From the NCBI GenBank assembly GCA_035513175.1, contig DATKCN010000250.1, positions 2,468 through 66,467 on the forward strand: a stretch of DNA of 64,000 nucleotides, given 5' to 3'. This DNA comes from Thermomicrobiales bacterium. Its GTDB lineage: Bacteria > Chloroflexota > Chloroflexia > Thermomicrobiales > CFX8. Under the pieces are notes generated by a model that was given only the letters and a program-made list of their open reading frames with translations, was not told where the DNA came from and made no database searches. The first letter of the stretch is position 1, and every line of letters begins with the position of its first letter. The translations under genes and the position numbers were made by a program. This document shows, piece after piece, positions 4,668 through 56,487 of this stretch.

Positions 4668-4787
4668 CGGGCGCATTGCCATTCGCCCCGATGGCGGGCA
4701 CGCTGATGGATCGACAACAGAGGATCTGGCCTGGTGTCAGGATGCCAGGGTGGCGCCTATCCAGCCGGGCGCATTGCCATGCGCCCC
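4668..4787. repeat. Two copies of a 22-nt REP-like palindromic motif CGGGCGCATTGCCAT(T/G)CGCCCC (4668..4689 and 4766..4787)
   Basis: Direct repeat about 98 bp apart in the 417-bp gap upstream of the MFS gene. The second copy is a perfect 8-bp dyad, GGGCGCAT-tgcc-ATGCGCCC. On the minus strand it reads GTAGGGGCGCATGGCAATGCGCCC, the same GTAGGGGC-hairpin style seen at 31329, 31561 and 31647. Confidence 0.6.
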
Positions 4788-4884
4788 TACCCATCTTCAA
4801 CACCGTGCCACCAGCCAGTTGACCCCGTATTGGTCCGCCGATTGGCGGTCTAATGCCTGTAACCCAACGGCGGCGGTCAGGCAC

Positions 4885-5853
4885 TCAGACCGCCACCCGC
4901 ATCACCTTCTCGAACACGAGCGTGCTCTGGATGGGGTGCATCCCAGCGTTCATGTACAGGCGGTCGGCGCCGGTGAGGCTGGTGGAGTCGACGCTCAGGC
5001 TGACCCGGGACTTGCCGCGACGGTAGAACTCGCCGAAGGTGTGGCACAGGAGGGCGCGGGCGATGCCACGGCGGCGCCAGGGGCGACGGACGGCGACGTA
5101 GCGGACGTGGCCCACCCGCGGTTCGCCAGGGCGCTCCCAGCGGCAGATAATGTAGCCGATGATCCGGCCGGTCGCGTCATCAATCGCAAGGAACCAGAGG
5201 GTGCTGTCGAAGTTGGCCTCGCGTTCGACGAAGTAGTAGCGGAATTCCTCGTCGGTGAGGCTGGAGTGGCCCCACTCGTCGCTCTGGGCGTCTTCCCAGG
5301 CTTCGTGAACGGCGTCCACCTCGGCGGGGTCGAACGTGCGGACGCTTACGCCCTCAGGCCAGACCGGGGCGGGGGGAGGCTCGTGCATGTCGATCTGCAT
5401 GCGATGCCAGACGCGGCTGCGGCTGAAACCGGCCTGGAGTATGCGCTGTTGAAGGGGCAGGTTGGTGGCCCAGGCGCGCGCTTCGAGCGTGACTCGCTCG
5501 CCAGAGGGCGCCCGCGGAAGCGTGAGGGCCGCCCGTTGCTCAGCCCAGTTCAGCAGAAACTCCTCGATGCCACGATTGTCGAAGCCGGGCAGGACGCCGA
5601 ACTCACACTCGCTGACGGTGAAGGGCTCGTACTCGGTGAGGTCGGCGTAGGCGACGATCTGGCCGTCGGGATCGAGCACGACGACGTTGTTGGTTTCGAG
5701 GTTGCTGTCCGCGCCCTCCCAGAACATGCTCAGTCGCTCGACGGTGGTGTCGCCCGTGCCGATGTCGTGCATCGAGCGTGCGTTTTCGACGATGACGACG
5801 GCCTCGACATCTTCCATCGTTGGAGCGCGAGACACGAAACCGGCTGGAAGCAT
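4885..5853 (-). CDS. Tandem-GNAT N-acetyltransferase (two acetyltransferase domains, MshD-like architecture)
   Basis: ORF 4885..5865 started at ATG 5853 (MLPAGFVSRAPTMEDVEAVV), with GGAGGA 4-5 nt upstream. The C-terminal domain has the acetyl-CoA motif VRRPWRRRGIARALL. The N-terminal half is a second, more divergent GNAT fold (VLPGFDNRGIEEFLL). Confidence 0.8.
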   Translation of the reverse strand: MLPAGFVSRAPTMEDVEAVVIVENARSMHDIGTGDTTVERLSMFWEGADSNLETNNVVVLDPDGQIVAYADLTEYEPFTVSECEFGVLPGFDNRGIEEFLLNWAEQRAALTLPRAPSGERVTLEARAWATNLPLQQRILQAGFSRSRVWHRMQIDMHEPPPAPVWPEGVSVRTFDPAEVDAVHEAWEDAQSDEWGHSSLTDEEFRYYFVEREANFDSTLWFLAIDDATGRIIGYIICRWERPGEPRVGHVRYVAVRRPWRRRGIARALLCHTFGEFYRRGKSRVSLSVDSTSLTGADRLYMNAGMHPIQSTLVFEKVMRVAV

Positions 5854-11488: not shown

Positions 11489-13531
11489 CTAGTATTCGGT
11501 CAGGCGCGGCGGGAGCCTTCTGGGGATCAGTGGCGATGCGGGAAACGAGGACAGCGTTGGGTTCGGGGCTGACTGCGCCGTCTGGTAGCGCCAGGCGTAG
11601 TAATGCTGGCCGACGTTGCCCATCTCGACGTGCCAGCCGGGGCTGTTGGCTGGCGTGTAGGTCATGCAGCGGCGCTCGAAGCACTGGATCAGCACGTCGC
11701 GATAGACGTTGGCGACCTTCACCCGTGCCCAGAACCCCTCGGTGACTGGCAGGCCGGTGGCGTAGAACCACGGCTCAAACAACGGTCCCTCGATCAACGC
11801 GCCGTCGACGTCGACCAATCCGTGGCTGTTCAGGTATTCCCAGAAGACGCTCGCGACGCGATGACCCGTCTCCGGCACGAAGTAGACGGCCGTGACGCCG
11901 TAGCCCGCGAAGCGCGAGTCGGCGCCGACGCGTCCGGCGCGGTCGATGGTGAGCACGATGGCGTTGTCCTGCTCTATCGCCGGCATGTTCAGCAGGCCGC
12001 TGAATGACGCATAGGTAGGCCCTGCCGCGTCGTCCGGATCTCCCGCAACGTTGACGACCGCGGGCGAGCGGGGTTCGAACAGCGCGTCCCCAAGCTGGAG
12101 CTGCCCGGAGATCAGCTCGCTGACCAGCAGGCCGTTCGTCACGTACCAGCGGTCAGAGCGGTCGTGGAGCGGGTCGGTGACCTCCATGCGGCTCTTGTCG
12201 AAGTAATAGATGAGGCGTGTGCCGTGTTGCGCCTCCGCATACGGCTCGTAGGCGTGGGTATTGGGGCCAACACCCCACAGCCATGTGCGGCTGGCGGCGC
12301 CGCTCGCGACCGGATTGTCCGTGACGCGCCAGGTGGCGTGCATCGGGCCGTAGACCGCGCCGCGGACGGCGGCCTCGACGTTGACCTGCCCCGCGCCCGT
12401 GCCGGCCACCGGGCCGCTGGGGGACACCGGCATGGCGGTCGTCGTCAACGCGCTGCGCACCTCGTCCGCGCCATACTCAGGCGCGACCGACTTCAGCAGC
12501 GCCGCCGCGCCGGAGATCATCGCGGCCGAGAATGAGGTGCCGGTCACCGGCCGAGAATCGGAATAGAACACATCCGACCAGTAGTCCCCGAAGAACTCGT
12601 CCCAGCCGGGCGAGAAGATCGACTCGCCGGGGGCCGCGATGTCGACGCGGGTGACTCGCGAGGTGAACGCTGTCGGCTGGCCGGTCGCCGTCAGTGCGCC
12701 GACGGAGATCGTTTCCGCGTAGTGGGCCGGGTAGCTGATGCCGCTGACCTGGTTGCCGGCCGCCGCGACGACGATGACGCCCTGCGACGTTGCGTACTGG
12801 ATTGCTTCGCGCTCGAGCTGGATGTACTCGTCGGAGCCGAGACTCAGGTTGATAACGTCCGCGCCGTTGTCGACCGCCCAGTAGATGGCCGCGATTTCGT
12901 CGGCGACGCTGATCTCGCCCTGCTCGCTGACGACCCGGATCGGCATGACACGCACGTCCATCGCGACGCCGGCGGTGCCGACATCGTTCGCGCCCTGGGC
13001 GGCTATGATGCCGGCCACGTGCGTGCCGTGCCCACTGATGTCGGCGGTGTTCGCGCTGCCGTCGATGACGTTGAAGCCGGCGACCATGCGGCCCGCGAGG
13101 TCCGGATGTGTCGGGCTGACCCCGCTGTCGATCACGGCGACGATAACCGTGTCACGTCCGGTGGTGATGTCCCACGCCCCTGGGGCGTGGATGCTGTTCA
13201 GCCACCAGGACTGGTTGTCGTACGCCTCGTCGGTTGGTTCCCAGGCGAGGTAGCGGCGGACGTTCGGTTCGACGATATCGACGCCGGGATCGGCGATCAG
13301 CATGCGATAGGCCCGCTCGGCGGCCCGAGCGTCATCGTAGGTCAGCACGACGATCGACGAGGGAGTGTCGCTGAAGCGCACGAGCAGTTCGCTGGCAGGG
13401 AAGGTAGATGCGGAAGCGGCCGCCTGCCGGGGGCTGACGGCGCCGAAGCCGAGCACGCAGCCGATCAGCAGTAGCGCGATGATCGCGACATGCGTCCGCC
13501 GGGTCGTGTCCGGCACTCGTCGTCTCGCCAT
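11489..13531 (-). CDS. Secreted subtilisin-like serine protease (S8), paralog, with the same unassigned C-terminal module
   Basis: ORF 11489..13588 trimmed to ATG 13531, with GGGAGGG 4 nt upstream. MARRRVPDTTRRTHVAIIALLLIGCVLGF is a signal/anchor. Triad contexts VAVIDSGV, HGTHVAG, GTSFSAAMISG. The C-terminal ~266 aa (nt 11492..12289) are homologous to 8580..9311. Confidence 0.85.
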   Translation of the reverse strand: MARRRVPDTTRRTHVAIIALLLIGCVLGFGAVSPRQAAASASTFPASELLVRFSDTPSSIVVLTYDDARAAERAYRMLIADPGVDIVEPNVRRYLAWEPTDEAYDNQSWWLNSIHAPGAWDITTGRDTVIVAVIDSGVSPTHPDLAGRMVAGFNVIDGSANTADISGHGTHVAGIIAAQGANDVGTAGVAMDVRVMPIRVVSEQGEISVADEIAAIYWAVDNGADVINLSLGSDEYIQLEREAIQYATSQGVIVVAAAGNQVSGISYPAHYAETISVGALTATGQPTAFTSRVTRVDIAAPGESIFSPGWDEFFGDYWSDVFYSDSRPVTGTSFSAAMISGAAALLKSVAPEYGADEVRSALTTTAMPVSPSGPVAGTGAGQVNVEAAVRGAVYGPMHATWRVTDNPVASGAASRTWLWGVGPNTHAYEPYAEAQHGTRLIYYFDKSRMEVTDPLHDRSDRWYVTNGLLVSELISGQLQLGDALFEPRSPAVVNVAGDPDDAAGPTYASFSGLLNMPAIEQDNAIVLTIDRAGRVGADSRFAGYGVTAVYFVPETGHRVASVFWEYLNSHGLVDVDGALIEGPLFEPWFYATGLPVTEGFWARVKVANVYRDVLIQCFERRCMTYTPANSPGWHVEMGNVGQHYYAWRYQTAQSAPNPTLSSFPASPLIPRRLPPRLTEY

Positions 13532-18513: not shown

Positions 18514-19395
18514 ATGACAGGATTGCCCGTGAAACCAAGCAAGCTACGGCAGAGCGTGCTGCTCTTTTTCGTCGTCGGCCCCCTCATTGCGACTGCCTAC
18601 GCCATGTACACGCTCTGGCATCAGTGGATCGGGTGGTCTGAGCTGACGCTGTTCTTCGTCCTGTACATGGCGACGGGACTCGGCGTGACGGTCGGCCTGC
18701 ACCGGCTGCTGACCCACCGCAGCTTCGAGGTCAGCACGCCACTCAAGGCGCTGTTCCTCATTCTGGGATCGATGGCCGTGCAGGGACGCGTGATCGACTG
18801 GGCCGCCAATCACCTGAAGCATCATGCCTTCTCGGATCAGGAAGGCGATCCCCATTCCCCGCTGGAGGGCTTCATCCACGCGCATGTTGGCTGGATCTTC
18901 TCCGCGCCGCCGCCGGACAAAGAGCGCTACGCCAAGCGGCTGATGGCAGACCCGGTCATTACCTTCATCGACCGCACCTTTCTGGTGTGGGTCGGGCTGG
19001 GGCTGCTCATCCCGTACCTGCTCGCCGGCTGGCAGGGCCTGCTCTGGGGCGGCTTTGTGCGCATCGCGGTCGTGAATCACGTCACCTGGGCGGTTAACTC
19101 CGTCTGCCACACCTTCGGCGACCGGCCATTCGACATCAAGGACATGAGCCGCAACAACTGGATCGTCGGCCTGCTGGCCTTCGGCGAAGGCTGGCACCAT
19201 AACCACCATGCCTTCCCGGCAATGGCCTACCACGGCATGTCCTGGAAGCAGTTCGATCTCTCCGCCCTGGTCATCCGGCTGCTGGCAACGCTGCGGCTGG
19301 CTCGCAACATCAAGCTGCCGTCCCCAGAGCTGATCGAGCGTCGCCGCCTGCGCGCCTCGAAGCGCGTCGTTACGCAACCGGTCGCCGGCGACTAG
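18514..19395 (+). CDS. Membrane acyl-CoA/acyl-lipid delta-9-type fatty acid desaturase
   Basis: 293 aa with N-terminal TM helices and three His boxes: HRLLTHRS, HLKHHAFSD, HNHHAF. Confidence 0.9.
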   Translation: MTGLPVKPSKLRQSVLLFFVVGPLIATAYAMYTLWHQWIGWSELTLFFVLYMATGLGVTVGLHRLLTHRSFEVSTPLKALFLILGSMAVQGRVIDWAANHLKHHAFSDQEGDPHSPLEGFIHAHVGWIFSAPPPDKERYAKRLMADPVITFIDRTFLVWVGLGLLIPYLLAGWQGLLWGGFVRIAVVNHVTWAVNSVCHTFGDRPFDIKDMSRNNWIVGLLAFGEGWHHNHHAFPAMAYHGMSWKQFDLSALVIRLLATLRLARNIKLPSPELIERRRLRASKRVVTQPVAGD

Positions 19396-19560
19396 TGAGC
19401 GGGTAGCGGTGAGCGGTGAGCGGAGAGGGGTTCGCGCAGGCGGCCTCGCGCCCTCGCTCGCGGCTCAAGCAAAGTGAGACGTGACACGCAACCGACGCCG
19501 TGGTCCCACTTAACCGCTCACCGCTCACCGCTCACCGCTCACCGCTCACCGCTCACCGCG
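19395..19560. repeat. Inverted pair of heptanucleotide tandem arrays: (GTGAGCG-type)x5 at 19395..19429 and (CCGCTCA)x6+CCGCG at 19514..19560
   Basis: Left: GTGAGCG GGTAGCG GTGAGCG GTGAGCG GAGAGGG, starting on the last base of the desaturase TAG. Right: six perfect CCGCTCA units, the reverse complement of the left unit. ~84-nt spacer. The stop codon of the minus-strand AhpD-like gene (19548..19546) lies inside the right array. Confidence 0.85.
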
Positions 19561-20172
19561 GAACGTCCCGTGAAACGCGCGGTCCGGGATGAAGCCGCAC
19601 GCGTTGGCGACGCGGTTGTTGAAGTTGTAGATCGCGGCGGTCTGGATGACGTCGTAGACGTCCTCGTCGGACAGGCCGTGCGCCTTCAGCGCCTCGATGT
19701 CCGCCTCCCTGCAATCGACCGACGAGCGCGTAATCTTGATCGCGTAGTCGAGGATGGCCCGCATGCGCGCGTCCAGTCCAGCCCGCCGGTAATCCTGCAC
19801 GATGCGCTCCGAGAGGACTGGGTCACCCGTCAGGCGCCGCAACTCGGCGCCGTGATTGGTGAGTCAGAGCATGCAACGGTTCTCTGACGAGACGACCACC
19901 CCGATCATCTCGCGCTCGACGCGCGTCAGCCCCGATGGCGCCTTGCTGATGAACTCGTACAGCTCCAGCCAGCGCATCATCAGGTCGGGTCGCCAGGAGT
20001 GGACGCGCACGACGTTGTTGGGCGCCCCGAGCTTCTCTCGCTGCAGCGCGACCAGCTCGGCCACGCGCGGATCGAGGTCCTCTTCCTTCGGGATTGGGAA
20101 CCAGCTTATGCGCTCGGTTGGGGTCCAGTCGGACGTCGTGTCCGCCTGCTCCGCGTGCGGCGTGTCAGACAT
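19546..20172 (-). CDS. AhpD/carboxymuconolactone-decarboxylase-family 'peroxidase-related' protein with in-frame TGA (19866..19864) at the CxxC position; candidate selenoprotein (or a very recent pseudogene)
   Basis: ORFs 19864..20244 and 19546..19842 share one frame and are separated only by TGA. The joined protein is MSDTPHAEQ...ISWFPIPKEEDLDPRVAELV...LTRVEREMIGVVVSSENRCML[TGA]LTNHGAELRRLTGDPVLSERIV...IYNFNNRVANACGF... Start ATG 20172 has AGGAG 6 nt upstream and overlaps the stop of the upstream gene (ATGTCTGA). Confidence 0.7.
19823..19862 (-). other. SECIS-like stem-loop immediately 3' of the in-frame UGA
   Basis: mRNA: UGA CUCACC AAUCAC GGCGCCG AGUUG CGGCGCC UGACG GGUGA. Outer helix UCACC/GGUGA, inner 7-bp helix GGCGCCG/CGGCGCC, apical loop AGUUG about 20 nt after the UGA. 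Folded by eye only. Confidence 0.4.
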
Positions 20173-23100
20173 CGAGTGCTCCTGCCTCATCCTCGCCAGA
20201 CCATTCCGGCGAATCGTGACTCCAGACTGCTTCAAGCGTGTCACGAATGAACTCTACGGTCACGCGTCCATCGTGGAGATCGCTGGAAGCCGCCGCGACA
20301 ACCCGCGTTCGGGCCTCGTCGATCGTTAGCGGCCGGTCGCTGGCAAGGTAGCCGCCTTCTTCGAGGAAGCGCTGGAGGTCGTTGCGCATCGCGCCGCGGA
20401 AATGCGAAATCTCGCCACGGTCCAGCGCCGCGATCAAGCTCTGGGCGTTACCGTCGACACGCCGCGCGAGCGCCGCGACACGGTCGATGAACACCGGCGT
20501 GATGACGCCGCACTCGATTATCACGGCGCGGTCGACGGGGCGTCCCCTCCCTGCGCGGAAGCAGGCGCAGGCTTCTTTGATGACATCCGCGCGCGCGTGG
20601 CAGCGTCGAACGATCTGCTCCTGACCGTCGAGCAGGTCCGCGCCGCCCAGATCGGCCATGGCGCGTAGTTGTCCCCACGTTTCGATGTGCAGCGAAAGCA
20701 GGCGGTGCAGCGCGTGAGTGTCGTCGATCAGGTGCCAGAGGTGTAGCCCGCCATCGCTCTCCGCGCGCGGGTCAATGCCGGGAACGCGCAGTAGCTCGCG
20801 ATAGTCGTCATGGCTCAAGCCGTCCGGCTCGGGGATCGTGATCACGGGCCACTCCACGTGCGCGACCGGCGGCAGACGCTCCCAGTCAGCGAGATCGCGA
20901 ATCTCGGCCAGATCCAGCAAGCGGAACGGAACCTCGGGATGCTGGGACATCACCGCTTGCCATTTGCGCACCTCGTCGTGTTGCGCGGTCAGGTACAGCA
21001 CCTGACGTCCGGAGCCAGCGATCTCTATGGTGGCGTCAATGATGGCGCGCGCCCGCTGCTCGTCGCTGTTGCCAAGCGTCTCGTCGAAGATGAGTGGCAG
21101 CATTACGCCCTGCTCCTGATGTTCGACGAACGCCACCCGCACCGCCAGCAGAAGCTGGAGACGGGTCCCGCTCGACAGCTCGTGCAGCGCGTGTCCGGCG
21201 CCGGTGACGTTGTCGATGGCCCGGAAGGCGGGCGGCTCGGTGTCGCTCAGTTCCAGCCGGTAGCGCCCGTGGGTGATCTTGACGAACAGCTCACGCGCCC
21301 GGTGGAAGACGAGCGGGCGGTCGTTGTCCCGCGTCTCCTCTCGGACGAAGTCGGCGATGCTCCAGCCCGCGACCTGCGCGTAGGCCTGCTCGCGGGCCTC
21401 GGCCAACTGCTCGCCATGCATCTGCTCAGCGGCCAGTGCCCGTTCAAGATCGTGCTTCGTTTTGGCCTCCGCGACCCGCGCCGTTACCGCCGCGATCTCG
21501 TCGCGAATCTCGTCCTGCTCCGCGCTGTGCTCGCGAGCGTCCTCCAGCCGCCGTTCAATCTCCGTAGCGGCTTCATCGGCCAGATGGCCGTCGTCGCCGA
21601 GCGCCTGTTCCGCGCGCTCGCACTCCAGCCTGGCACGCTGGGACGCTTCCCGCGCCAGCCGGTAGGCCTCCAGCTGGTCCAGCAGACCGGTGAGCTGATG
21701 CTCGTCCTCCTCGTTCATGTCGAGACGCTCGAAGAACGCGTGAATATCCGCTTCCCGGCGCTCTAGCTGCGGTCTGAGCTGCTCGCGCAGCAGCCGGGTG
21801 CTGCGCTCGTGGCTCGCCTGAGCCTCGTTCCAATCTCGTTCCCGCTGTGTCAGGTCCTCGATGCAACCGAGCGCTTCCGCCTGTTTCGCGACGGTCGCGT
21901 AGTCATATGAGGCCAGCGTCGCGTTGAGCTCGTCGAACGTGGCCGCGAGGCGGGTCCTGAGCGCGGCGATCTCCGCCGCCGTTCCATTCAAGCGGTCGCG
22001 CGCGTGCTGCCATTGCACGAGATTGCTGGCCAGCACGTACAGGCTCGCTGGGTCGCGTCCGGGCGCCGCGCCAAACCGCGTGGCTGCCGCGTCGATTTCT
22101 GCCTGTGCTTCGGCGCTGCGAGCCTGCAGCGCGACGCGCTCGTCAGCAACGTAATCCCAGCGTTGCCGCTTCTCCTCATCGAGGGCGCGTGACCGTTGCT
22201 GTTGCGCCAGGGTCTCGATCAGCAGTTCCACCTCCGCTGAGTGCCACGTTGAGGGCGCGTCGAGCTGCAAGCGCTCGTATTCAGCGCGCACCAGCTCCGT
22301 CGCGGAAGTCGCCTCGGAAGCGCTCCGAGAGCGGCCCTGTTTGAGAGCCACGTACACCAGCCACGCCCCGGTCACCACAAGGATGAGCGCGGCCGGATGG
22401 GCGACGATCCCCAGCACGATGCTCTGCACGATCACTGCGATGCCGGCGATCAACAGCAATGTGCGCCGCTGATTCGCCTTGCCAGCCGGCGCCTCGGCGC
22501 GCTCGTGCCGCAGCCACTGGTCGAGCGCGTGGATGCCCGCATCCAGTCGTCGTCGCTCTTCGGGATCCAGCGGCTGGCTCGACGCGATCGGCCCGAGCCA
22601 CGTGTGCAATGCCTCCAGTGCCGCGAGCTGCGCACGGACCGTCGCGTGTCGCTGTGCCAGCTCCGCGAGCTGATCGAATTCCACGACACCCAGTCCGGCC
22701 AGACGTGAGTCGTCCGCCAGCGCCCCGAGCGAACGCCGGGCCGTCTCAAGCTGAACTGACGCGTCATCACGCCGGGTTTCCGCCGCCCGTGTGGCGGATG
22801 TGATGTCCTGCAGCTCCGAGCAACGCTCCCGTAGTGCCGCAACGAGTCCGCCGGGTACGCGCTCATCCAGACGGGCGCGCCGCTGCCGGTCCACCGCGTC
22901 GGACATCTGCTGGGACTCGGCGGCAATCGCGGCGCGCGCCTCCTCCTGGCGCAGCCGCAGGTCCCGAAGTGTCTCTCGCTCGTCGCCTGAAAGTCGTTCC
23001 ATCACGTCGGGAAACGTCGTGAGCTGTGCGAGCGTGTCATCCCGCGCGCTGCGCGCGAGGCGGCAATCAAGCGCCTTCTGCAGCGTCGCAACTTTCCTGT

Positions 23101-29670: not shown

Positions 29671-30783
29671 CTACGCGTCACGCGTTGCGAACAGCAGGCA
29701 CACCGGCGACGGCGCCATCGTGACGTTGCCCGTCTCTTCCAGACGCCCCGACTCCCCGTCGACGCGGAACGTGACGATCGTGTCGCTGTTCTGGTTGGCG
29801 GCCAGCAGATAGCGTCCCGTTGGGTCGATTCCGAAGTTGCGCGGCTCCTCGCCCAGCGTTGACTGGTGTCCTGCCGGCGCAAGCGTGCCGTCGAGCGGGT
29901 CGATGGCGAAGATGGCAATGCTGTCGTGTCCCCGGTTCGAGCCGTAGAGAAACCTGCCGTCCGGCCTGACGTGGACATCCGCGCAGGAGTTCCTGCCGTC
30001 GAATCCCTCCGGCAGCGTCGAGATGGTCTGCCGTGGCTCCAGCACGCCGCCGACAAGGTCCCAGCGGCACGCTGTTATGGTCGAGTCCAGCTCGTTGATG
30101 ACGTAGACGAACGACGCTCCGGGATGGAACGCAAGGTGGCGCGGCCCCGCGCCCGGATGCAGGCTGGCGAACGGCGGGTCGTGCGGCGCGAGCCTCCCGA
30201 GCTCCAGATCGATGCGGTAGATGAGCACCTGATCGAGTCCGAGGTCGGCGACCAGCGCGACGGTGTTGGTCGGATCCGGTGTGATCGAGTGCGCGTGGGG
30301 TCCCTGCTGCCGCACTGGATGCACGCTGGAGCCGCTGTGCTGGTGGATGTCGCTGGCCTGCTTGAGCGAGCCGTCGCTCTCGACCGGCAACATGGCCACG
30401 CTGCCGGTCGCGTAATTCGCGACGAGGACGTACTGCCCGGTGGCGTCGACCATGAGGTGGCACGGATCGCCGCCGTGTGACGCCTCGCGGTTGAGAAAGC
30501 TGAGCCGCCCAGTCCCCGGATCGCGGGCGAAGGCGCTCACCGCGCCGCCATCGTGCCCGTCGATGCTGGGAACCTCGTTGACGGCGTACAGCGTCCTGCC
30601 ATCGGGCGCCAGCGCAAGGAAGGCGGGACTGGGAACGTCAGGGATCTCCTGCGCCAGCCGCAGCGCGCCGCTGTCGCTGTCGAACGAGTAGCAATAGAAG
30701 CCGTCGGCCCGGCCTCGCTCGCCGGGGCCGTGATGGGTGAACGTTCCAACGTAGACCCACGTCGCCGGGGCGTTGCCGCTCAT
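29671..30783 (-). CDS. Lactonase, 7-bladed beta-propeller family (6-phosphogluconolactonase-like)
   Basis: ORF trimmed to ATG 30783 (MSGNAPATWVYVGTF...), with GGAG 6 nt upstream. Repeated propeller blades with GxxPRH/F motifs (GAGPRHLAFHP, GEEPRNFGIDP). Confidence 0.8.
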   Translation of the reverse strand: MSGNAPATWVYVGTFTHHGPGERGRADGFYCYSFDSDSGALRLAQEIPDVPSPAFLALAPDGRTLYAVNEVPSIDGHDGGAVSAFARDPGTGRLSFLNREASHGGDPCHLMVDATGQYVLVANYATGSVAMLPVESDGSLKQASDIHQHSGSSVHPVRQQGPHAHSITPDPTNTVALVADLGLDQVLIYRIDLELGRLAPHDPPFASLHPGAGPRHLAFHPGASFVYVINELDSTITACRWDLVGGVLEPRQTISTLPEGFDGRNSCADVHVRPDGRFLYGSNRGHDSIAIFAIDPLDGTLAPAGHQSTLGEEPRNFGIDPTGRYLLAANQNSDTIVTFRVDGESGRLEETGNVTMAPSPVCLLFATRDA

Positions 30784-30811
30784 CGTTGACTCCGTTCTGC
30801 GTACTCCCGCG

Positions 30812-31177
30812 TCACGCCAGCGCGATGCAGGCGAAGCCGCACTTGGCCTGGGTTGGGACCCCGAAGCGCGCCGTGTGGCGGGCCGGGAGCCCATGCGGAA
30901 AGTGCTTCACGTATTCGGCGTTGATCTCCTGGTAGTCGGCTGAGTTGGTAATCAACAGCGTCACCTGGATCACCTTTTCCAGCGACGACCCGGCCTCCTC
31001 CAGCACCGCCTTCATGTTGTTGACGGCCGCGCGGGCTTCCTCGGTGGCCGTGCCGTGCACGCCGCCCGAGATGCCGGACACGAACACCAATCCCGCCGCC
31101 TTCGTCGCCCGCGAGAACGGCCGCGCCTCGCCCTCCGGTTGGCTGATGTACTCGATCCCGCGCTCCTGCTCCTGCAT
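30812..31177 (-). CDS. ridA: RidA/YjgF/L-PSP family reactive-intermediate deaminase
   Basis: ORF trimmed to ATG 31177 (MQEQERGIEYISQPEG...), with GGGGGAGG upstream. ~121 aa with the typical AGLVFVSG...KVIQVTLLITN...ARHTARFGVP pattern. Confidence 0.85.
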   Translation of the reverse strand: MQEQERGIEYISQPEGEARPFSRATKAAGLVFVSGISGGVHGTATEEARAAVNNMKAVLEEAGSSLEKVIQVTLLITNSADYQEINAEYVKHFPHGLPARHTARFGVPTQAKCGFACIALA

Positions 31178-31217
31178 ATCGCCTCCCCCTCTCCCACTTT
31201 CGCACGCGCCAGACCGC

Positions 31218-31255
31218 CGCATCATGCCAGCACGTCCGCATCATGCCAGCACGTC
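31218..31255. repeat. Perfect 19-nt tandem duplication CGCATCATGCCAGCACGTC x2 (+CGCA)
   Basis: Read directly. It lies ~40 nt upstream of the ridA start on the minus strand. Confidence 0.85.
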
Positions 31256-31274
31256 CGCAGCGGGGCAACACACG

Positions 31275-31769
31275 GAGTCGGGATGCGGGACGTGGCGGGG
31301 ATGGCGCGGGTAGCGCGCGCCGACCTCTGTAGGGGCCGGTCTTGCGCCGACCCACGGCCCGCTGGCCGTCCGGCAGGACCGGGCACGACGCAGGCACATG
31401 TGCGGTGAGCGCAACTAGTGCATGAGGAGTTCAAGGACGCCAAACCCATACACGTCCGGTTGTCGTCCTTGACCATGACGTAAACCGTCAGAGGCATCCG
31501 AGGCCGTTACGACACCGCCGGATCGGTCGGGCATCGCGGCGCGCGGCCAGCGGGCCGCCGGGCCCGGCAAGCCGCGGCCCCTACGGGGGTTGACAATGCG
31601 CCGCCGTTCGAAATCGGTCCGGCATCGACGCGGCGGCCTCACGGCCGAGGCCGGCACAAGACCGGCCCTAACCAGGATCGGCGCGCGGCATCCGAGCCCG
31701 TCGCCGCCGCGTCCCGCGTCCCGGCCAGCGCGTCCCGCTTCCCGACCAACGCGTTCCGCATCCCGACTC
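31275..31769. repeat. ~495-bp non-coding element bounded by 20-nt imperfect inverted repeats (18/20)
   Basis: Left arm GAGTCGGGATGCGGGACGTG (31275..31294). Right arm CGCGTTCCGCATCCCGACTC (31750..31769), whose reverse complement is GAGTCGGGATGCGGAACGCG. The interior has no coding-like ORF and is packed with REP-like hairpins and 7-nt-periodic repeats. No obvious target-site duplication. Confidence 0.55.
31329..31673. repeat. Three REP-like GTAGGGGCC-type hairpin elements (31329..31353 plus strand; 31561..31584 and 31647..31673 minus strand)
   Basis: GTAGGGGCCGGTCTTGCGCCGACCC. Reverse complement of 31561..31584 is GTAGGGGCCGCGGCTTGCCGGGCC. Reverse complement of 31647..31673 contains TTAGGGCCGGTCTTGTGCCGGCC (perfect GGCCGG/CCGGCC stem). 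Mutually similar, and similar to the motif at 4766. Confidence 0.55.
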
Positions 31770-31771
31770 AC
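31709..31771. repeat. 3 x 21-nt imperfect tandem repeat built from heptamers (GCGTCCC GCGTCCC GGCCAGC / GCGTCCC GCTTCCC GACCAAC / GCGTTCC GCATCCC GACTCAC)
   Basis: Read directly. The TGA stop of the M14-like gene (31770..31768) lies in the last heptamer. Confidence 0.8.
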
Positions 31772-34700
31772 CCTAGCCGCAACGGCCGCGCCCGCCCGAC
31801 GCGAAGGGTCACCGTCCCGTCCCCGTGCTCCGTCCGCCACCGGCTGATCGGCGGCGCGGCGGCCAGCAGCAGGTCGAGCGTCGCCCTGTTCGCCAGCAGG
31901 TGAGCCCGCGCCACCCGCTCAAGGTGCTCGCCTTCGGCCGTCTCGTCGTTTACCTCCGTCACCCACGAGAGCACCGTCGTCTTCGGGAAGCGGGTCGCGA
32001 AGCCCCTTCCCTGCGGATCGGGCGGCGCGGAGTCGATGTGCCACAGCATGTCGTCGTGAAACTCGCCCGGAAAGCGGTCGGGCAGGCGCGACTGACCCCA
32101 CTGGCGATAGCTCGCGCCGTAGACGCGGTTCCAATCGCCGATGTCGGTGTCGCGCACGATGGCCGACACCGCGTCGCGCAACGCCAGCGCCGCCGCCCGA
32201 TGCTCGGGATACTCCGGCGCGTCGACCCAGCGGGCGATGCCGTACAGCAGCGCCTGCGGAATCCAGTACGACACGCCGAATCGCGGCGGGGAGCCGAACC
32301 CGGCGAACGGCTGCACCCATTCGTGCGACGGCACCCCGTGGTTGTCGACGATCGCGTCGGCGGGCCAGCGCTCCCATACCGCGCGTCGCACGCGGGCCTC
32401 GCCGAAACGGGTGTCGGGATCGAACGTCCCCTCGCCGAACTCATAACCCAGCGCGTTGTAGCGCGCCGGGTGGTGCTTCCATGTGGTCGCGCCTGGCTCG
32501 GCCGCCAGCCGCGCGTGCAGCGCCGCGCCGTCCGGATTCTCATACGGCAGGATCAGCACGTTCACCGCGTCGAGGTAGCGCCGCCACTCGGGATCGGTCG
32601 CGCACAGCCAGGCCAGCCGGAACGCGGCGTTCGTGCTGGAGATTTCATTTGCGTGATGCCGCGCGACAACCAGATAGGTCGGTTTGAAGATGGCAGCCTT
32701 CATTGGAGAATGCAGCCTTCCCGGCGTCGGCGCCGCCAGCGACAGCGCGACCAGCGGCCGCCCCTGATACGAGTGGTCTTCCACCCAGGACGTGACCTCG
32801 GGGAAGGTGGCGAGCCCGGTCGCCCACGACATAACATCGTCACCGTGGATGTTGGTGTCCATTGGAGGGCCGGGGGATGAGGGCCGGGGGCCGCGAGGGG
32901 CGAGAAGCGAGGGGAGCGGCAGGCGGAGTTCAACGGATTCGGCTCCGAGGGAGATGATGGTAGATATTGAAGCGCCATCGGGCGTCGGCATCGCTGCCAG
33001 TTCGCGCAGGCGGGCGAGGGTTGGCCCGCTGTCGCCATCGACCTCTACAGCCACGTCGACGGCCAGTTCATCGCCGTGTCGGCGGATGCCGTCGACCCAG
33101 ACAGCGGGTAGCGGCAGGGCAGGCCGCTCCGGCGCGGCGCGTAGCGTGACGCGGGCGCGCGGCGCCTGCCCGGGCGTGACGCGCACCAGCGGGATGACCG
33201 CCCCTGGGGCGTTGCAGCGCTCGCCGGTCTGCGCGCGCCCGTACATCTCGATCGCGTCGAGCGTTGTGAAGTAGATGTCCTCGGCCAACGCCTCCGCCGC
33301 CGAATCGTTCTCCTCGCGCACGCCGACCGGCTCGTTCGGCTCGCTGATCCATACCTCGGCCAGCAGCTCGCCGAAGAACGGCTGGGCAGCGGAGTGCGCC
33401 CCGCCGCGCGCCTCGATCAGCCGCAGCAGCTCCGGAATGACCTCCTGCTGCCAGAAATCCCAGAAGGTTTCGAGGTCGGTCTGGAGTGGGAAGCTCCCTC
33501 GGCCCGTCGCACCGACGCCGTATACGCCGCCAGTTGTTACCTCGACCGTGCCGCTGTCGGGGATGGCCGCCACGAAGGGCCGGTAACGCGAGAGCCAGCC
33601 CAGTTCGTCGAGATACACGCTGCCGCCATGCTCATCGAAGGCCTCGACGGTGAAGATTCTCCGATCCTGCCGCCGTTTCACCATCTCGACCGCCTCAAGC
33701 GGGATGCGAAGCGCTTCCGCCAGCAGTTCGTTGCCCGGAAACAGCTCCTGCAGCCAGCGGATGGGCATGTCCAGCAAGCCCTCCGGGCGCAGAGGACCGT
33801 CTGTTCGCAGTGGGGGATAGCTGATCCGCACACGCGAGACCGGGAGACCTGCAAGGGCAGGAATGACAACCTCGCGCAGCCAACAGAGCCCGAACTTGAA
33901 CGAGCACAGCACGGTGACACGGGCGTTCGGGCAGCCGTATTCGGCGAGCAGCGTCTTCACCCGCTGGGCCAGCGCCTCGCGTTGAGCCAGAGGTTCGCTG
34001 ACGAACACCGTCAGGTGTTCAGTGCCCTCCAGCCAACCCCCTGCCAGCATCTCGATCAAACGGTCGACCTCCCACGCCGCTTCCCAGTCGCGCTGCCAGA
34101 TGATCTCGCCCGGCTCGTTCGGCTCCGGCCCGTCCCCCGCCAACCAGCGCCGCAGCGTGGCGACCGCCGAGGCCACGCCCCCGGTTTCGGGCGCGGTTAC
34201 ATGGGGCCATGTTGCGGCCACCTGCTCGATAAGCGCGGCCAGCGCCTCAGGCTCGCCCCCGGCCAGCCAACCGTTCGGCACGCGCCGGAGCGAGGCAGCC
34301 CCGTCGCCGGGCCGCACGTCGAAGACGGCGCCGCTGACGGCCTCGCGCACGAGCGGAAACGTCAGCCCTCCGCTTTCGACGCCCAGTCGCGCCGCCAGGT
34401 TCGCCAGCGCGACGCCCAGCGGCGTCGGAAGCTCGTCAGGGAGGGCGAGGGCGATCCGCGACGCGTCCGGCAGCCGGTCTCCGTCGCGGTCCAGCAAGGC
34501 GCCATCGATAGTGCACAGGCGCGTCAGGCAGCGGGCCGGCTCGACGCCATCCGGCAGTGACGACGCGCGGGTTTCTTCAAAGGCGCTCGCCGTGGGCAGA
34601 TCAGCGATCTCCGTGACGGTGACATGCTCCGCGCCATCCGGCAACACGGACGCTTCCGCGACAACCAGCGGCATCGGCAGCGCGTGCGTCTCCAGCCCTA

Positions 34701-34842
34701 TGCGCGCGGCGGCGTCGATCAGCGCGGCCCAGAAGGCGCGCTCCCCGCTCCGTTCAGGCAGGTCAACGACCAGCCTGGCCGTCGCGTCATCCGGGTAGCC
34801 GTCGCCGTTCCGATCGACGGCCCAATCGCTGCTCACCTGCAT
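31768..34842 (-). CDS. Large (1024-aa) protein with C-terminal M14 (carboxypeptidase A-like) metallopeptidase domain and ~650-aa unassigned N-terminal region
   Basis: ATG 34842 with GGGAGGGGG upstream. C-terminal third: VVARHHANEISSTNA (HxxE zinc motif), ILPYENPDGAALH, IVDNHGVPSHEW (third zinc His). No signal peptide seen. The N-terminal two thirds have no motif I recognise. Confidence 0.7.
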   Translation of the reverse strand: MQVSSDWAVDRNGDGYPDDATARLVVDLPERSGERAFWAALIDAAARIGLETHALPMPLVVAEASVLPDGAEHVTVTEIADLPTASAFEETRASSLPDGVEPARCLTRLCTIDGALLDRDGDRLPDASRIALALPDELPTPLGVALANLAARLGVESGGLTFPLVREAVSGAVFDVRPGDGAASLRRVPNGWLAGGEPEALAALIEQVAATWPHVTAPETGGVASAVATLRRWLAGDGPEPNEPGEIIWQRDWEAAWEVDRLIEMLAGGWLEGTEHLTVFVSEPLAQREALAQRVKTLLAEYGCPNARVTVLCSFKFGLCWLREVVIPALAGLPVSRVRISYPPLRTDGPLRPEGLLDMPIRWLQELFPGNELLAEALRIPLEAVEMVKRRQDRRIFTVEAFDEHGGSVYLDELGWLSRYRPFVAAIPDSGTVEVTTGGVYGVGATGRGSFPLQTDLETFWDFWQQEVIPELLRLIEARGGAHSAAQPFFGELLAEVWISEPNEPVGVREENDSAAEALAEDIYFTTLDAIEMYGRAQTGERCNAPGAVIPLVRVTPGQAPRARVTLRAAPERPALPLPAVWVDGIRRHGDELAVDVAVEVDGDSGPTLARLRELAAMPTPDGASISTIISLGAESVELRLPLPSLLAPRGPRPSSPGPPMDTNIHGDDVMSWATGLATFPEVTSWVEDHSYQGRPLVALSLAAPTPGRLHSPMKAAIFKPTYLVVARHHANEISSTNAAFRLAWLCATDPEWRRYLDAVNVLILPYENPDGAALHARLAAEPGATTWKHHPARYNALGYEFGEGTFDPDTRFGEARVRRAVWERWPADAIVDNHGVPSHEWVQPFAGFGSPPRFGVSYWIPQALLYGIARWVDAPEYPEHRAAALALRDAVSAIVRDTDIGDWNRVYGASYRQWGQSRLPDRFPGEFHDDMLWHIDSAPPDPQGRGFATRFPKTTVLSWVTEVNDETAEGEHLERVARAHLLANRATLDLLLAAAPPISRWRTEHGDGTVTLRVGRARPLRLG

Positions 34843-41057: not shown

Positions 41058-42005
41058 GTGGTTCAAGACGGATCGAAGGTCGGGACTGGACCGTTGGCGA
41101 CGCCTGCGGCTGGGCCGCAAGCCAGTGAGTCACTGACGACCCTCGGCTCCGCCGCTCCGCAACGGCGCCGCACCAGCGTCTGGCAGCGCTTCCGCCGCCA
41201 CCGGCTGGCGCTGATCGGGCTGACCATCCTCGTGCTTTTGGCAATCGTCTCGATCGGGGCGCCGCTCTTCACCCAACATGGTCCGTACAGCGTTGATCTG
41301 CGTTCGGCCCGCATGGGGCCGACCTCCAGCCACATTCTGGGGTCTGACCCCGCCGGGCGCGATGTCTTCAGCCGGCTGTTGTACGCCGGGCGGGTGTCGC
41401 TTTCAGTTGGCATTGTTGCCGTCGCGATCTACACCGTCATCGGGGTTGTCCTGGGCGCGGTCGCGGGCTTCTACGGCGGGTGGGTCGACTCCACGATCAT
41501 GCGGCTGGCCGACATCGTGCTGGCGTTTCCATCGCTGCTGATCATCATCACCGTCGTGTCGGTGCTAGGCCCCAGCCTGTTCAACATCATGCTCGTCATC
41601 GGCCTGCTCGGCTGGCCGCCGATCACGCGCCTGCTGCGTGGCGAGTTCCTGTCGCTGCGCGAGCGCGAGTTCATCGTCGCCGCGCGCGCCACCGGGGCGA
41701 GGAACAACCGGCTGATGTTCCGGCACCTGCTGCCGAACGCCATCGCGCCGATCATCGTTGCCGCCACCTTCGGCGTGGCGAACGCCATCCTGCTGGAGGC
41801 CGGGCTGAGCTTTCTCGGTCTGGGCGTGCAGCCGCCGACGCCGAGTTGGGGTAGCATGCTGACGGGCGCGCAGTCGCTGACCGTGCTGGAGTCGATGCCG
41901 TGGCTGTGGGTTCCGCCGGGCGTCATGATCGCCGTGGCGGTGCTCTCGATCAACTTCATCGGCGATGGCCTGCGGGACGCCCTCGACCCGTATCTGTCCC
42001 GCTGA
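41058..42005 (+). CDS. ABC transporter permease (DppC/OppC-like)
   Basis: 315 aa. GTG start with GGAGGAG 6 nt upstream. REFIVAARATGARNNRLMFRHLLPNAIAP EAA loop. No ATPase gene follows. Confidence 0.9.
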   Translation: MVQDGSKVGTGPLATPAAGPQASESLTTLGSAAPQRRRTSVWQRFRRHRLALIGLTILVLLAIVSIGAPLFTQHGPYSVDLRSARMGPTSSHILGSDPAGRDVFSRLLYAGRVSLSVGIVAVAIYTVIGVVLGAVAGFYGGWVDSTIMRLADIVLAFPSLLIIITVVSVLGPSLFNIMLVIGLLGWPPITRLLRGEFLSLREREFIVAARATGARNNRLMFRHLLPNAIAPIIVAATFGVANAILLEAGLSFLGLGVQPPTPSWGSMLTGAQSLTVLESMPWLWVPPGVMIAVAVLSINFIGDGLRDALDPYLSR

Positions 42006-42106
42006 TCCGCTGCCCACGCGTCTATTGCGTATATGAGGAGGGCCGCCCTGTAGAGACCGCGCCAGGCGCCTCGACGATCTGTTTTCAACCGGGGAGGGAA
42101 CGCAAC

Positions 42107-43282
42107 GTGTCAGACATATACGGCAGGCTCGGCCTGCGTCCGCTCATCAACGCGCGCGGATCGCACACGCGGCTCGGCGGCTCGATCATGCCCGCCGAGG
42201 TGCTCGACGCCATGCGCGAGGCTGCTCAAACGTACATCGTGCTGGAGGAGCTGCAGGAGAAGGCCAGTGAGGTCATCGCCCGCGCTACCGGCGCCGAGGC
42301 CGGGATGGTCACCGGAGGGGCCGCGGCAGGACTGATACTCGGGACCGCCGCCTGCATCGCCGGGAGCGATCCGGCCAGCATCGAGCGCCTTCCGGACACG
42401 TCCGGCATGAAGGGCGACGTGGTGATGCATCGCGCGCACCGCAACGGCTACGACCACAGTGTCCGCGCCGCCGGGGCGCGCATCGTCGAAGCAGGCTACG
42501 GGCACGGCACGATTCCCTACCAGCTCGAAGCGGCTATCGGCGAGCAGACGGCGCTCGTCTTCTACGTGATGGCTCCCTGGGCCAGCAAGGGCGCGCTCTC
42601 GCTGCGGAAAACCTGCGAAATCGCCCACCGCAAGGGCGTGCCGGTCATGGTCGACGCCGCCGCGATGCTGCCGCCCGCCGAAAACCTCACGCGCATCATC
42701 GCCGACGGCGCCGATCTGGTGGTCTACAGCGGCGGCAAGGGCATCCGTGGCCCGCAGTCGTCCGGCATTCTGGCGGGCCGCGCCGATCTCGTCCGTGCTG
42801 CGGCCATGAACGGCAGCCCGAATCACAGCATTGGGCGCCCTGCCAAGGCCGCGCGTGAGGACATCGTCGGGCTCATCGTCGCGCTGGAACGCTTCATGGC
42901 GCTCGATCACGACGCGGAGCTGGCGCGCTGCCGCGCGCAGGCCGAGTTCATGCTCGGCAAGCTGGGAGACTTTCCGGGCGTTGAGGCGCACTACCGGCAC
43001 GACGGCTACGAGCACCCGATGCCGCGCGTCGAGCTGGTCATCGACCGTGCCGAGACCGGCATCGAAGCCGGAGAGCTGATAGGCGCGCTGGAACAGGGCG
43101 ATCCGCGCGTGTTCGTCATCGCCTGGAACGGCCCGACGGCCAGCCCGAACAACATCACGATAAATACCCACACGATGCTGCCCGGAGAGGAGGACGCCGT
43201 CGCCGAGGTCATCGGTCACGCGCTCCGGCAGCGATTGAATGCAAACGCGCCCGCGCTGGCGGGCAGTGTCGCGAGCTTATAG
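42107..43282 (+). CDS. SelA-like / DgaE-like PLP-dependent enzyme (fold-type I; lacks the SelA N-terminal domain)
   Basis: ORF 41900..43282 trimmed to GTG 42107 (GGGAGGGA upstream). YSGGKGIRGPQSSGILAG carries the PLP-Lys context shared with SelA (SGDKLLGGPQ). ~391 aa. Confidence 0.7.
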   Translation: MSDIYGRLGLRPLINARGSHTRLGGSIMPAEVLDAMREAAQTYIVLEELQEKASEVIARATGAEAGMVTGGAAAGLILGTAACIAGSDPASIERLPDTSGMKGDVVMHRAHRNGYDHSVRAAGARIVEAGYGHGTIPYQLEAAIGEQTALVFYVMAPWASKGALSLRKTCEIAHRKGVPVMVDAAAMLPPAENLTRIIADGADLVVYSGGKGIRGPQSSGILAGRADLVRAAAMNGSPNHSIGRPAKAAREDIVGLIVALERFMALDHDAELARCRAQAEFMLGKLGDFPGVEAHYRHDGYEHPMPRVELVIDRAETGIEAGELIGALEQGDPRVFVIAWNGPTASPNNITINTHTMLPGEEDAVAEVIGHALRQRLNANAPALAGSVASL

Positions 43283-55860: not shown

Positions 55861-56367
55861 ATGGACGCCTATCTGGCGATCATCTCAAAGCGCGAAGTCC
55901 GCAGCTACAGTGACACGCCGCTGGCGGATGACGCGTTGACCCGCATCCTGCAGGCCGGCCGAGCGACCGGCAGCAGCCGAAACCGTCAGGAGTGGGAATT
56001 CATCATCGTGCGGGGACAGGACGCGCTGACCCGCCTGGCGGAGACCGTCTCCGCGCCGGATAACGTCCGGGGCTGTCAGGTGGCCGTCGCGGTCGTCCTC
56101 ACCGGTCAGCCGGACTGGGATGGCGGGCGCGTCGCGCAGAACATGATGCTGGCCGCCTGGGCCGACGGCATCGGCTCCTGCCCGAACACGCCGCGTGACC
56201 GCGACGCGTGCTACCGGATACTTGGCGTGGCGGAGGACGCGCAGATCGCAACGCTCATCTCACTCGGCTACCCTCAGCGGCCCATCCGCGTCGACTCCGA
56301 TCCGGACGCAATCCTGCGCCGTATCAACCGCAAGCCCCTGGCGGAGCTGGTTCGGTATGTTGAGTGA
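55861..56367 (+). CDS. Nitroreductase-family flavoprotein
   Basis: 168 aa. ISKREVRSYSDTPL...ILQAGRATGSSRNRQEWEFIIV is a typical FMN nitroreductase N-terminus. GAAGGGAG SD. Confidence 0.85.
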   Translation: MDAYLAIISKREVRSYSDTPLADDALTRILQAGRATGSSRNRQEWEFIIVRGQDALTRLAETVSAPDNVRGCQVAVAVVLTGQPDWDGGRVAQNMMLAAWADGIGSCPNTPRDRDACYRILGVAEDAQIATLISLGYPQRPIRVDSDPDAILRRINRKPLAELVRYVE

Positions 56368-56487
56368 GTCGAGACGGGTGATGCGGGACGCGGGACGCGA
56401 TCCTGCAGGATTGTTGATCCCCAGGATGCCGAGGATGTTCACCTGCCCCAATCCATTACTCCCTGTTCCCTGTTCCCTGTTCCCTGA
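56362..56487. repeat. Heptamer-array locus: GAGTC-GAGACGGG..GATGCGGGAC GCGGGAC GCG (56362..56399) and (CCCTGTT)x3+CCCTGAA (56461..56487)
   Basis: The left part overlaps the nitroreductase TGA (56365..56367). It shares GATGCGGGACG with 31282..31292, and CGGGACGCGGGACGCG (56384..56399) is the reverse complement of 31708..31723. The right array ends at the purD upstream region. Confidence 0.7.

Follow-up and report, generated by a model that had tools for sequence, protein, structure and literature searches.

What kind of sequence fills the gap between two genes when its ends resemble those of a transposon and its interior consists of palindromes? The question is raised by a 590-bp spacer in the genome of an uncultured Thermomicrobiales bacterium (assembly GCA_035513175.1, contig DATKCN010000250.1, positions 2,468 to 66,467; this whole stretch of 64,000 nucleotides is called the window here, and coordinates given without a locus name refer to it). 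The spacer separates a gene for an M14-family metallopeptidase, whose stop codon lies at 31768-31770, from ridA, both genes being encoded on the minus strand. A first-pass annotation had taken it for a non-autonomous element similar to a miniature inverted-repeat transposable element (MITE). Our results point to a different answer, which we hold with slightly better than even confidence: the spacer is a composite that evolved locally from intergenic repeats of two known kinds, heptamer arrays and GTAG-headed palindromes, rather than a discrete transposon, and it probably acts as a 3′-end structure at the RNA level. The spacer bears no sign of a jumping element, and its mobility is unproven.

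The outermost components of the spacer are two heptamer arrays that face each other. The right array (31703-31770, minus strand), delimited by Tandem Repeats Finder (TRF) and by the printed heptamer register, has its G-rich strand in sense and extends over the M14 stop codon. Its sense strand reads TGAGTCG GGATGCG GAACGCG TTGGTCG GGAAGCG GGACGCG CTGGCCG GGACGCG GGACGCG, that is, three units of 21 nt with three heptamers in each. TRF confirms this higher-order repeat, which the first-pass annotation had already recognised, at 31708-31767 (period 21 in 2.9 copies, 87%; also period 7 in 5.4 copies). The left array (31275-31316, plus strand) was recognised from the sequence and by alignment as the inverted counterpart of the right one. 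Its G-rich strand is antisense to ridA, and its units are GAGTCGG GATGCGG GACGTGG CGGGGAT GGCGCGG GTAGCGC. A canonical four-tract G-quadruplex motif with loops of 4, 7 and 7 nt can be read in the left array at 31280-31310 (plus strand); the loops of the right array, at 11-18 nt, fall outside the canonical limit (four G3 tracts, loops of at most 7 nt).

The 20-nt termini 31275-31294 and 31750-31769 match in inverted orientation at 18 of 20 positions, the right one containing the TGA of the M14 gene. Two such terminus matches are present against 0.03 expected, and none of 100 shuffles reaches two, so the inverted ends described earlier are real. They read as terminal inverted repeats because the two facing arrays belong to one unit family. 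Moreover, the right boundary of the element is not unique: the right array has its 21-nt unit three times in tandem, the terminus that matches at 18 of 20 positions is the one farthest out, and three registers are therefore equivalent. The best inverted alignment has arms of about 105 nt (31279-31381 against 31614-31723; score 71, shuffles 23 ± 4), each made of three heptamers, a GC-rich stretch and a palindromic module. It pairs the left arm with the innermost right 21-nt unit, and two further units run outward to the M14 stop.

Between the arrays lie three modules that resemble repetitive extragenic palindromic (REP) sequences. Each measures 60-100 nt and has GTAG or TTAG as its head, together with a stem-loop (about 6 bp in the stem, 7 nt in the loop) and another small GC palindrome. 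Module A (31303-31400, plus strand; GTAG head at 31329), recognised by alignments and profile, belongs to the left arm of the inverted repeat and carries the hairpins GGGCCGG-TCTTGCG-CCGACCC and ACGGCC-CGCT-GGCCGT. The other two modules have the opposite orientation. Module B′ (31500-31597, minus strand; GTAG head at 31584), with the palindromes CCGGGCC-CGGC-GGCCCG and GCGGCC-CGCT-GGCCGC, is a tandem copy about 91 nt from module C′ (31600-31700, minus strand; TTAG head at 31671), in which the hairpin GGCCGG-TCTTGTG-CCGGCC is followed by CGGCC-GTGA-GGCCG and which forms the right inverted-repeat arm together with the innermost heptamers. The three REP-like hairpins of the first-pass annotation were thus recovered: GTAGGGGCC occurs at 31329 (plus strand) and 31584 (minus strand), and the third hairpin, at 31671 (minus strand), begins with the variant TTAGGGCC. 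Pairwise alignment scores of the modules are 45 (A and B′), 46 (A and C′) and 34 (B′ and C′), against about 18-20 ± 3 for shuffles; these scores were reached by none of 500 shuffles in the first two comparisons and by two of 500 in the third. In a profile of the three modules (nhmmer), module C′ is found with E = 1.8e-19.

The centre of the spacer (31420-31480, minus strand), set apart by composition and by an inverted repeat, has a lower GC content (56%) and a hairpin with a 13-bp stem (31431-31443 / 31460-31472). It folds at -22.1 kcal/mol (z = -1.9), and neither relatives nor an Rfam match were found for it. In the direction of transcription the order of components is therefore the G-rich array, C′, B′, the low-GC core, inverted A, the C-rich array, a promoter-like site of ridA, a 19-nt duplication and the ridA start. 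When folded as RNA, as the first-pass annotation had suggested, the whole spacer forms a long hairpin of -357.7 kcal/mol (z = -4.75 against shuffles) by long-range pairing of its two ends.

From this anatomy we infer an origin by slippage and local duplication. The G-rich heptamers would have grown by slippage into 21-nt higher-order units, one array abutting the M14 stop with its G-rich strand in sense, the other lying upstream of the ridA promoter with its G-rich strand in antisense. The GTAG-headed, GC-rich modules may have multiplied on site to give an inverted pair and one tandem extra copy around the lower-GC core. If the M14 transcript enters the spacer, it would form a long imperfect hairpin with arms of about 105 nt and nested stem-loops, with G-quadruplexes as a possible alternative at the arrays. 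This hairpin could act as a 3′-end structure (a terminator, an RNA stabiliser or an insulator) that separates M14 from ridA, and transcription of ridA would begin at its own conserved promoter-like site at 31240-31268.

The same components could also be read as those of a non-autonomous mobile element, either a MITE of about 495 bp or a pair of inverted GTAG modules (about 31300-31700) similar to a REPIN (REP doublet forming a hairpin; Bertels and Rainey 2011, PMC3116915), inserted in or beside a heptamer array that already existed at the M14 stop. The mover would be a REP-associated tyrosine transposase (RAYT) or the transposase of an insertion sequence (IS) encoded elsewhere in the genome. 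The inverted ends and the long arms speak for such an element, as do its noncoding nature and MITE-like size; furthermore, A and C′ form a facing pair whose GTAG heads point outward, and head-head is the most frequent arrangement of GTAG REP pairs (Di Nocera et al. 2013, PMC3733652). On the other side, no target-site duplication was found at any candidate boundary register (the flanks read GGGT/GAGTCGG... and ...CCGACTC/CGTG), the right end has its three registers, and the inverted modules are 255-340 nt apart, well above the 20-100 bp that are usual in REP pairs and REPINs. Pfam identifies no transposase and no RAYT (Y1 transposase, PF01797) among the 40 proteins of the window.

Copies of the element, as the first-pass annotation had proposed to look for, were sought in 405 kb of DNA, consisting of the 64-kb window and about 340 kb from 16 Thermomicrobiales/Chloroflexia loci, 18 metagenome contigs and one other. 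Neither blastn nor the profile found a second copy of the element, of its termini with flanks or of its modules there, 64 kb of the same genome included; all three copies found by the module profile lie in the one spacer. When the spacer was compared with the window, the relatives and the metagenome contigs by blastn, only heptamer strings of 13-24 nt were obtained. Scanning the JGI metagenomes with the degenerate 20-nt terminus GAGTCGGGATGCGGRACGYG gave 18 contigs with matches of 20-24 nt, none of which extends beyond 24 nt. Most of these matches lie inside coding DNA of unrelated organisms, and two (contigs L011 and L019) are other heptamer arrays. A 141-aa frame, one of six translations, which crosses two thirds of the element, retrieved nothing from a collection of 5.8 billion proteins and three weak matches from 1.84 billion representatives; the best of these, the only one inspected, is due to the low-complexity 7-residue repeat GEDAGRI. 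Among the plasmids of PLSDB (distant mode), which include the megaplasmid of Thermomicrobium roseum, the only match was one of 36 nt in Burkholderia, and the first 50 kb of that megaplasmid contain no comparable arrays or GTAG blocks. In T. roseum, REPs do use small GC palindromes as insertion sites and are concentrated at a few loci; this favours mobility to some degree, and because of the clustering a scarcity of local copies does not settle the question. Lacking a target-site duplication, a definite right end, a further copy in the DNA searched and a transposase in the window, the spacer does not bear out the MITE-like element of the first-pass annotation, and we regard a mobile origin in either form as unlikely, though it deserves a place in the discussion.

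The spacer of a relative bears on the same question. L009, the only syntenic relative, keeps the gene order Slr1353_N / M14 - RidA - lactonase with an M14 protein that is 70% identical, and its M14-ridA spacer measures 115 bp against 590 bp in the window, about 475 bp being absent. It consists of CCACTTT CCACTTT TGACTTT CCAATTT CGACTC, followed by TGTGTTGCCC-N14-TGGCATCATGCG. The ridA-proximal array of the window likewise ends in CGACTC just before the promoter-like site. That site (31240-31268, minus strand), proposed from the block conserved between the window and L009, comprises a -35 box TTGCCC (31268-31263), a 17-nt spacer, and TGG with CATGAT (-10 box at 31245-31240). The arrangement in L009 is the same, TTGCCC-17-CATCAT, and TGTGTTGCCC-N14-TGGCAT[C/G]ATGCG is conserved between two loci whose M14 proteins have diverged to 70% identity. 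The match lies below the threshold of the consensus scan, which found no promoter in 30700-32200 and none inside the spacer.

Since the ridA-proximal array and the promoter are common to both loci, they look ancestral. L009 retains these two components without the interior, which is what an empty site of a mobile element could look like, and the comparison of empty and filled sites envisaged earlier does yield a short spacer. However, with a neighbouring protein only 70% identical, loss in L009 is as likely as gain here: the additional 475 or so bases, which hold the G-rich partner array, the modules and the core, would have been either gained in the window or lost in L009, two histories that are indistinguishable at such a distance.

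Could the spacer instead encode a structured noncoding RNA, a cis-regulatory leader or attenuator of ridA, or an antisense RNA? The strong overall fold, the distinct lower-GC centre with its clean hairpin and the position directly upstream of ridA are consistent with this. However, Rfam gave nothing credible for the spacer, whether at the gathering threshold or at E ≤ 10, and the consensus scan places no promoter inside it. The interior is also absent from L009, where ridA keeps the same promoter-like site, and three ridA homologues, 89-91% identical, occur in different gene contexts behind unrelated upstream sequence. Finally, as transcription from the conserved promoter would begin downstream of the structure, the latter would not be part of the ridA leader. 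We therefore consider a dedicated regulatory RNA quite improbable.

Still less credible, in our estimation to a very small degree only, is a decayed gene or a rearrangement scar between M14 and ridA that was later overprinted by repeats. The gene that follows M14 varies among relatives, ridA being found there only in the window and in L009, and the central core differs in composition; both would fit a remnant. Against it, GC at third codon positions is 0.84-0.91 in the neighbouring genes and 0.57-0.78 in the long open reading frames of the gap, so that no frame in the gap shows the bias typical of this genome, in accordance with the first-pass annotation, which had seen no coding frame there. 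The 141-aa frame is without a homologue, and blastn against the relatives and the plasmid collection with the T. roseum megaplasmid brought nothing to light.

The heptamers of the spacer are part of a wider pattern. In the window, six segments with a lag of 7 are present, compared with 0, 1, 1 and 0 for lags of 5, 8, 10 and 13, and 7 is the dominant short tandem period among those that are not multiples of 3. TRF reports period-7 arrays at 19395, 19513, 31707, 56383 and 56460 of the window and in the relatives L009, L010 and L003. The strings that the spacer had been said to share with other heptamer loci are shared exactly, and two further sites can be added: GCGGGTAGCG is found at 31306, 19399 and also 33104, GATGCGGGACG at 31282, 56380 and also 8185, and 31708-31723 is the exact reverse complement of 56384-56399. 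The proposal that the spacer is built from 7-nt units with GCGG/CCGC cores is correct in part, in that such units recur at 19395/19513 and 56380/56460, but palindromic modules make up the spacer as well.

Two convergent genes of the window have their stop codons overlapped by (GTGAGCG)n at 19395-19431 and by its inverse (ACCGCTC)6.7 at 19513-19559; the pair has arms of 47 nt that are 83% complementary (fold z = -3.1), and its GG tracts do not match the canonical G-quadruplex motif with four G3 tracts. A GCGGGAC array at 56380-56399 follows a stop codon, and (TCCCTGT)4 at 56460-56486, whose antisense strand also contains a four-tract G-quadruplex motif, ends 1 nt before the start of purD. In L010 the M14 stop is overlapped by (CGTGATG)4 at 5251-5278, an array in which the contig breaks off. 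The arrays of L009 adjoin three gene boundaries (7011, 13092-13128 and 14840), L005 has a GAGGGAT/ATCCCTC heptamer hairpin after the M14 stop (9078-9135), and the metagenome contig L019 has a heptamer hairpin, first G-rich and then C-rich, between tuf and rpmG. A common placement rule emerges: arrays that closely follow a stop codon carry their G-rich strand in sense, and those upstream of the next gene carry it in antisense. It is obeyed by 11-12 of the 13 arrays in the window, L005, L009, L010 and L019. Convergent inverted pairs are formed at 31275/31770 and 19395/19513 and in L019 and L005. In all five M14 orthologues the stop is followed by a heptamer array or hairpin, the unit of which changes from one orthologue to the next. 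The preference for gene 3′ ends noted in the first-pass annotation holds for the units, which do recur at gene ends, but it is a trait of a published heptamer class and is not evidence of transposon targeting.

Several observations were made on individual arrays. Heptamers that contain TGA (GTGAGCG at 19393-19431 of the window, CGTGATG at 5251-5278 of L010) place stops in all three frames at the end of a gene when present in at least three copies. A perfect (CGCGTCC)x4.3 array of 30 nt lies at 4845-4874 of L003 within the M14 orthologue, whose open reading frame it leaves intact; it encodes part of a linker between domains, and its heptamer is that of 31708-31723 in the window, the reverse complement of 56384-56399. 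The leader GAGTCGGGATGCGGGACGCG stands at the head of heptamer arrays in the metagenome contigs L019 (3625-3705, minus strand), where the array is the hairpin in the tuf-rpmG spacer, and L011 (1-25), which begins at its array; at 56366 of the window the similar GAGTCGAGACGGGTGATGCGGGACGCG directly follows a stop codon. GAGTC was considered as a universal array leader and rejected, being absent from the arrays at 19395 and in L005.

GTAG hairpins also occur at another M14 locus. After the M14 stop of L004 (9100-9270), whose M14 protein is 59% identical, a GCATCACGCAT remnant is accompanied by a pair of GTAG hairpins (9111/9265). A GTAG hairpin at 4790 of the window (GTAGGGGCGCATGGCAATGCGCCC) has a stem of the same family, and these stems differ from those of the spacer modules. 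In that part of the window, an MFS and a GNAT gene are separated by 418 bp that contain two hairpins GGGCGCATTGCCAT[T/G]CGCCC (4669-4694 and 4765-4792) at a distance of 98 nt, one of them with a GTAG head.

A number of points weigh against a local composite with a role in RNA. Single sub-hairpins are no more stable than shuffles at such a GC content (z about 0), the long-range pairing alone being so. The scan of 30700-32200 detected no canonical intrinsic terminator (stem plus U-tract), and the RNA role proposed for the spacer would be deduced from its sequence. Because the modules were not seen elsewhere in the DNA searched, their REP label rests on form only. The CCACTTT array at 13092 of L009 breaks the proximity part of the placement rule, and insertion would also explain the roughly 475 bp missing in L009. 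The outermost 14 nt, GAGTCGGGATGCGG, are identical in both arrays, and this leader also heads the arrays of the unrelated metagenome contigs L011 and L019, with a similar sequence at 56366 of the window; a common array leader is not obviously predicted by independent slippage. It would be accommodated if the heptamer arrays were the ends of an undescribed composite palindromic element of Thermomicrobiales, with a GAGTCGG-GATGCGG-GACGCGG leader, GTAG palindromes, a core and the inverse, which would insert at stop codons or create them and add heptamers at its ends. The leader at 56366, in L011 and in L019 would then be due to a common enzyme that acts in mobilisation or in array generation. We give this idea little credence.

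What, then, does a locally evolved composite mean for this locus and beyond it? On the one hand, it would extend two documented, functionally unexplained repeat classes to an uncultured Thermomicrobiales lineage, where both are nested in one spacer. On the other hand, the presence of a repeat after the stop in five M14 orthologues hints at a positional constraint, such as a 3′-end RNA structure, or at a mutational hotspot. For annotation it carries a warning, as facing heptamer arrays mimic the terminal inverted repeats of transposons.

A separate feature of the spacer lies outside the palindromic element. The perfect 19-nt tandem duplication listed in the first-pass annotation extends over 31217-31259 according to TRF (CCGCATCATGCCAGCACGT in 2.3 copies, 100%). 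It doubles the -10-like box (TGGCATGAT) of the ridA promoter-like site, of which L009 has a single copy, and the doubled box could alter the start or the strength of ridA transcription. A sigma-54 promoter within the repeat was considered and rejected, the GG/GC spacing read from the sequence being wrong.

The flanking genes are of known families. The gene downstream of the spacer (30812-31177, minus strand) is ridA of the Ribonuc_L-PSP family (Pfam PF01042, E = 1.3e-15). The gene upstream (31768-34842, minus strand) was assigned to the M14 metallopeptidases by Pfam and protein comparison; its protein is 100% identical to an NCBI entry designated 'MAG TPA: Thermomicrobiales', and the next best relatives reach 69-70%. 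That this gene was cut short by the array was rejected, since its C-terminus is within the normal length variation of the family. RidA is 89-91% identical to homologues in quite different neighbourhoods (HTH_17, cytochrome c), and for the M14 next to it the identity to relatives nowhere exceeds 70%; the explanation is either a far stronger conservation of ridA or its movement between gene contexts. The 64-kb window contains no tRNA or tmRNA detected by scanning. Elsewhere in it, a CMD/AhpD-like gene (19546-20253, minus strand), with PF02627 on both halves, has an in-frame TGA at 19861-19863 in the context C-M-L-TGA-L-T-N-H, that is, CxxU against the CxxC of the family. The hairpin GGCGCC-GAGTTGC-GGCGCC lies about 18 nt downstream, and there is a weak SelA-like Pfam match at 41900-43282. 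The TGA is probably a selenocysteine codon with a selenocysteine insertion sequence (SECIS) element.

Among the known systems, bacterial MITEs (Correia/NEMIS, ERIC, Nezha) share with the spacer a length of a few hundred bp, the noncoding nature, inverted ends, the fold into a long hairpin and the location at a gene 3′ end. The spacer differs from them in the absence of a target-site duplication, of a second copy and of a related IS in the searches made here, and in ends that are tandem units with an ambiguous boundary. Heptamer repeats have also been described as (GATAGRA)n satellites in Chloroflexus (PMC6749651) and as TAACTGA repeats in Beggiatoaceae, where almost all are direct and one indirect set occurs among 169 (PMC4679880). 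Together with the short tandemly repeated repetitive (STRR) sequences of cyanobacteria, they resemble our arrays as intergenic tandem heptamers beside gene starts and ends with a suspected function at the RNA level. Their units are different, none of them is reported to enclose GTAG palindromes, and the arrays described here, unlike the TAACTGA repeats, face each other.

The modules are closest to the GTAG-tagged REPs, which are documented in Chloroflexi, including GTAG-23 of T. roseum and Roseiflexus (Di Nocera et al. 2013, PMC3733652). In general these lie mostly downstream of genes, often as inverted pairs, and their clusters are reiterated with flanking DNA; in T. roseum they are associated with CCGSSCC(n3-4)GGSSCGG palindromes (PMC3733652). 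The modules of the spacer differ from them in having no dispersed copies in the DNA searched, one TTAG head, stems of about 6 bp with 7-nt loops, no RAYT in the window and no blastn similarity to the T. roseum megaplasmid. They agree with them in the GTAG head beside a short GC-rich stem-loop, in the position downstream of a gene between co-directional genes, in the inverted head-head units that can form a larger hairpin, in clustering, in the association with small GC palindromes of the same kind and in belonging to the same bacterial order. The modules thus fit GTAG-tagged REPs in form and placement, and their membership of the class is not established.

For the arrays, the best parallel is provided by the GGGNATC-type heptamer repeats of Xanthomonas and Nostoc, to which the placement rule given above applies as well (Rehm et al. 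2015, PMC4692102). Each Xanthomonas genome has 70-75 convergent inverted pairs, and the number of units turns over between species at conserved positions (PMC4692102). The arrays described here are distinguished by their units, GGGAYGC, GGGACGC, GTGAGCG and ACAGGGA instead of GGGAATC, several types of which coexist, by their host in the Chloroflexota, by the 21-nt higher-order period of the right array and by a distance of about 390 nt between the facing arrays, which enclose other repeats; furthermore, the array at 19395 and the right array exceed the canonical G-quadruplex loop limits. In most other respects the two groups agree. Both consist of 7-nt tandem units, each with a G-tract, in noncoding DNA between co-directional or convergent genes, with the G-rich coding strand 0-50 bp from a stop codon and often overlapping it, or else on the noncoding strand upstream of an open reading frame. 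Some of the arrays here contain four-tract G-quadruplex motifs (31280-31310 and 56460-56486), and both groups often form two facing arrays capable of a stem-loop, whose position is kept while their length and sequence vary.

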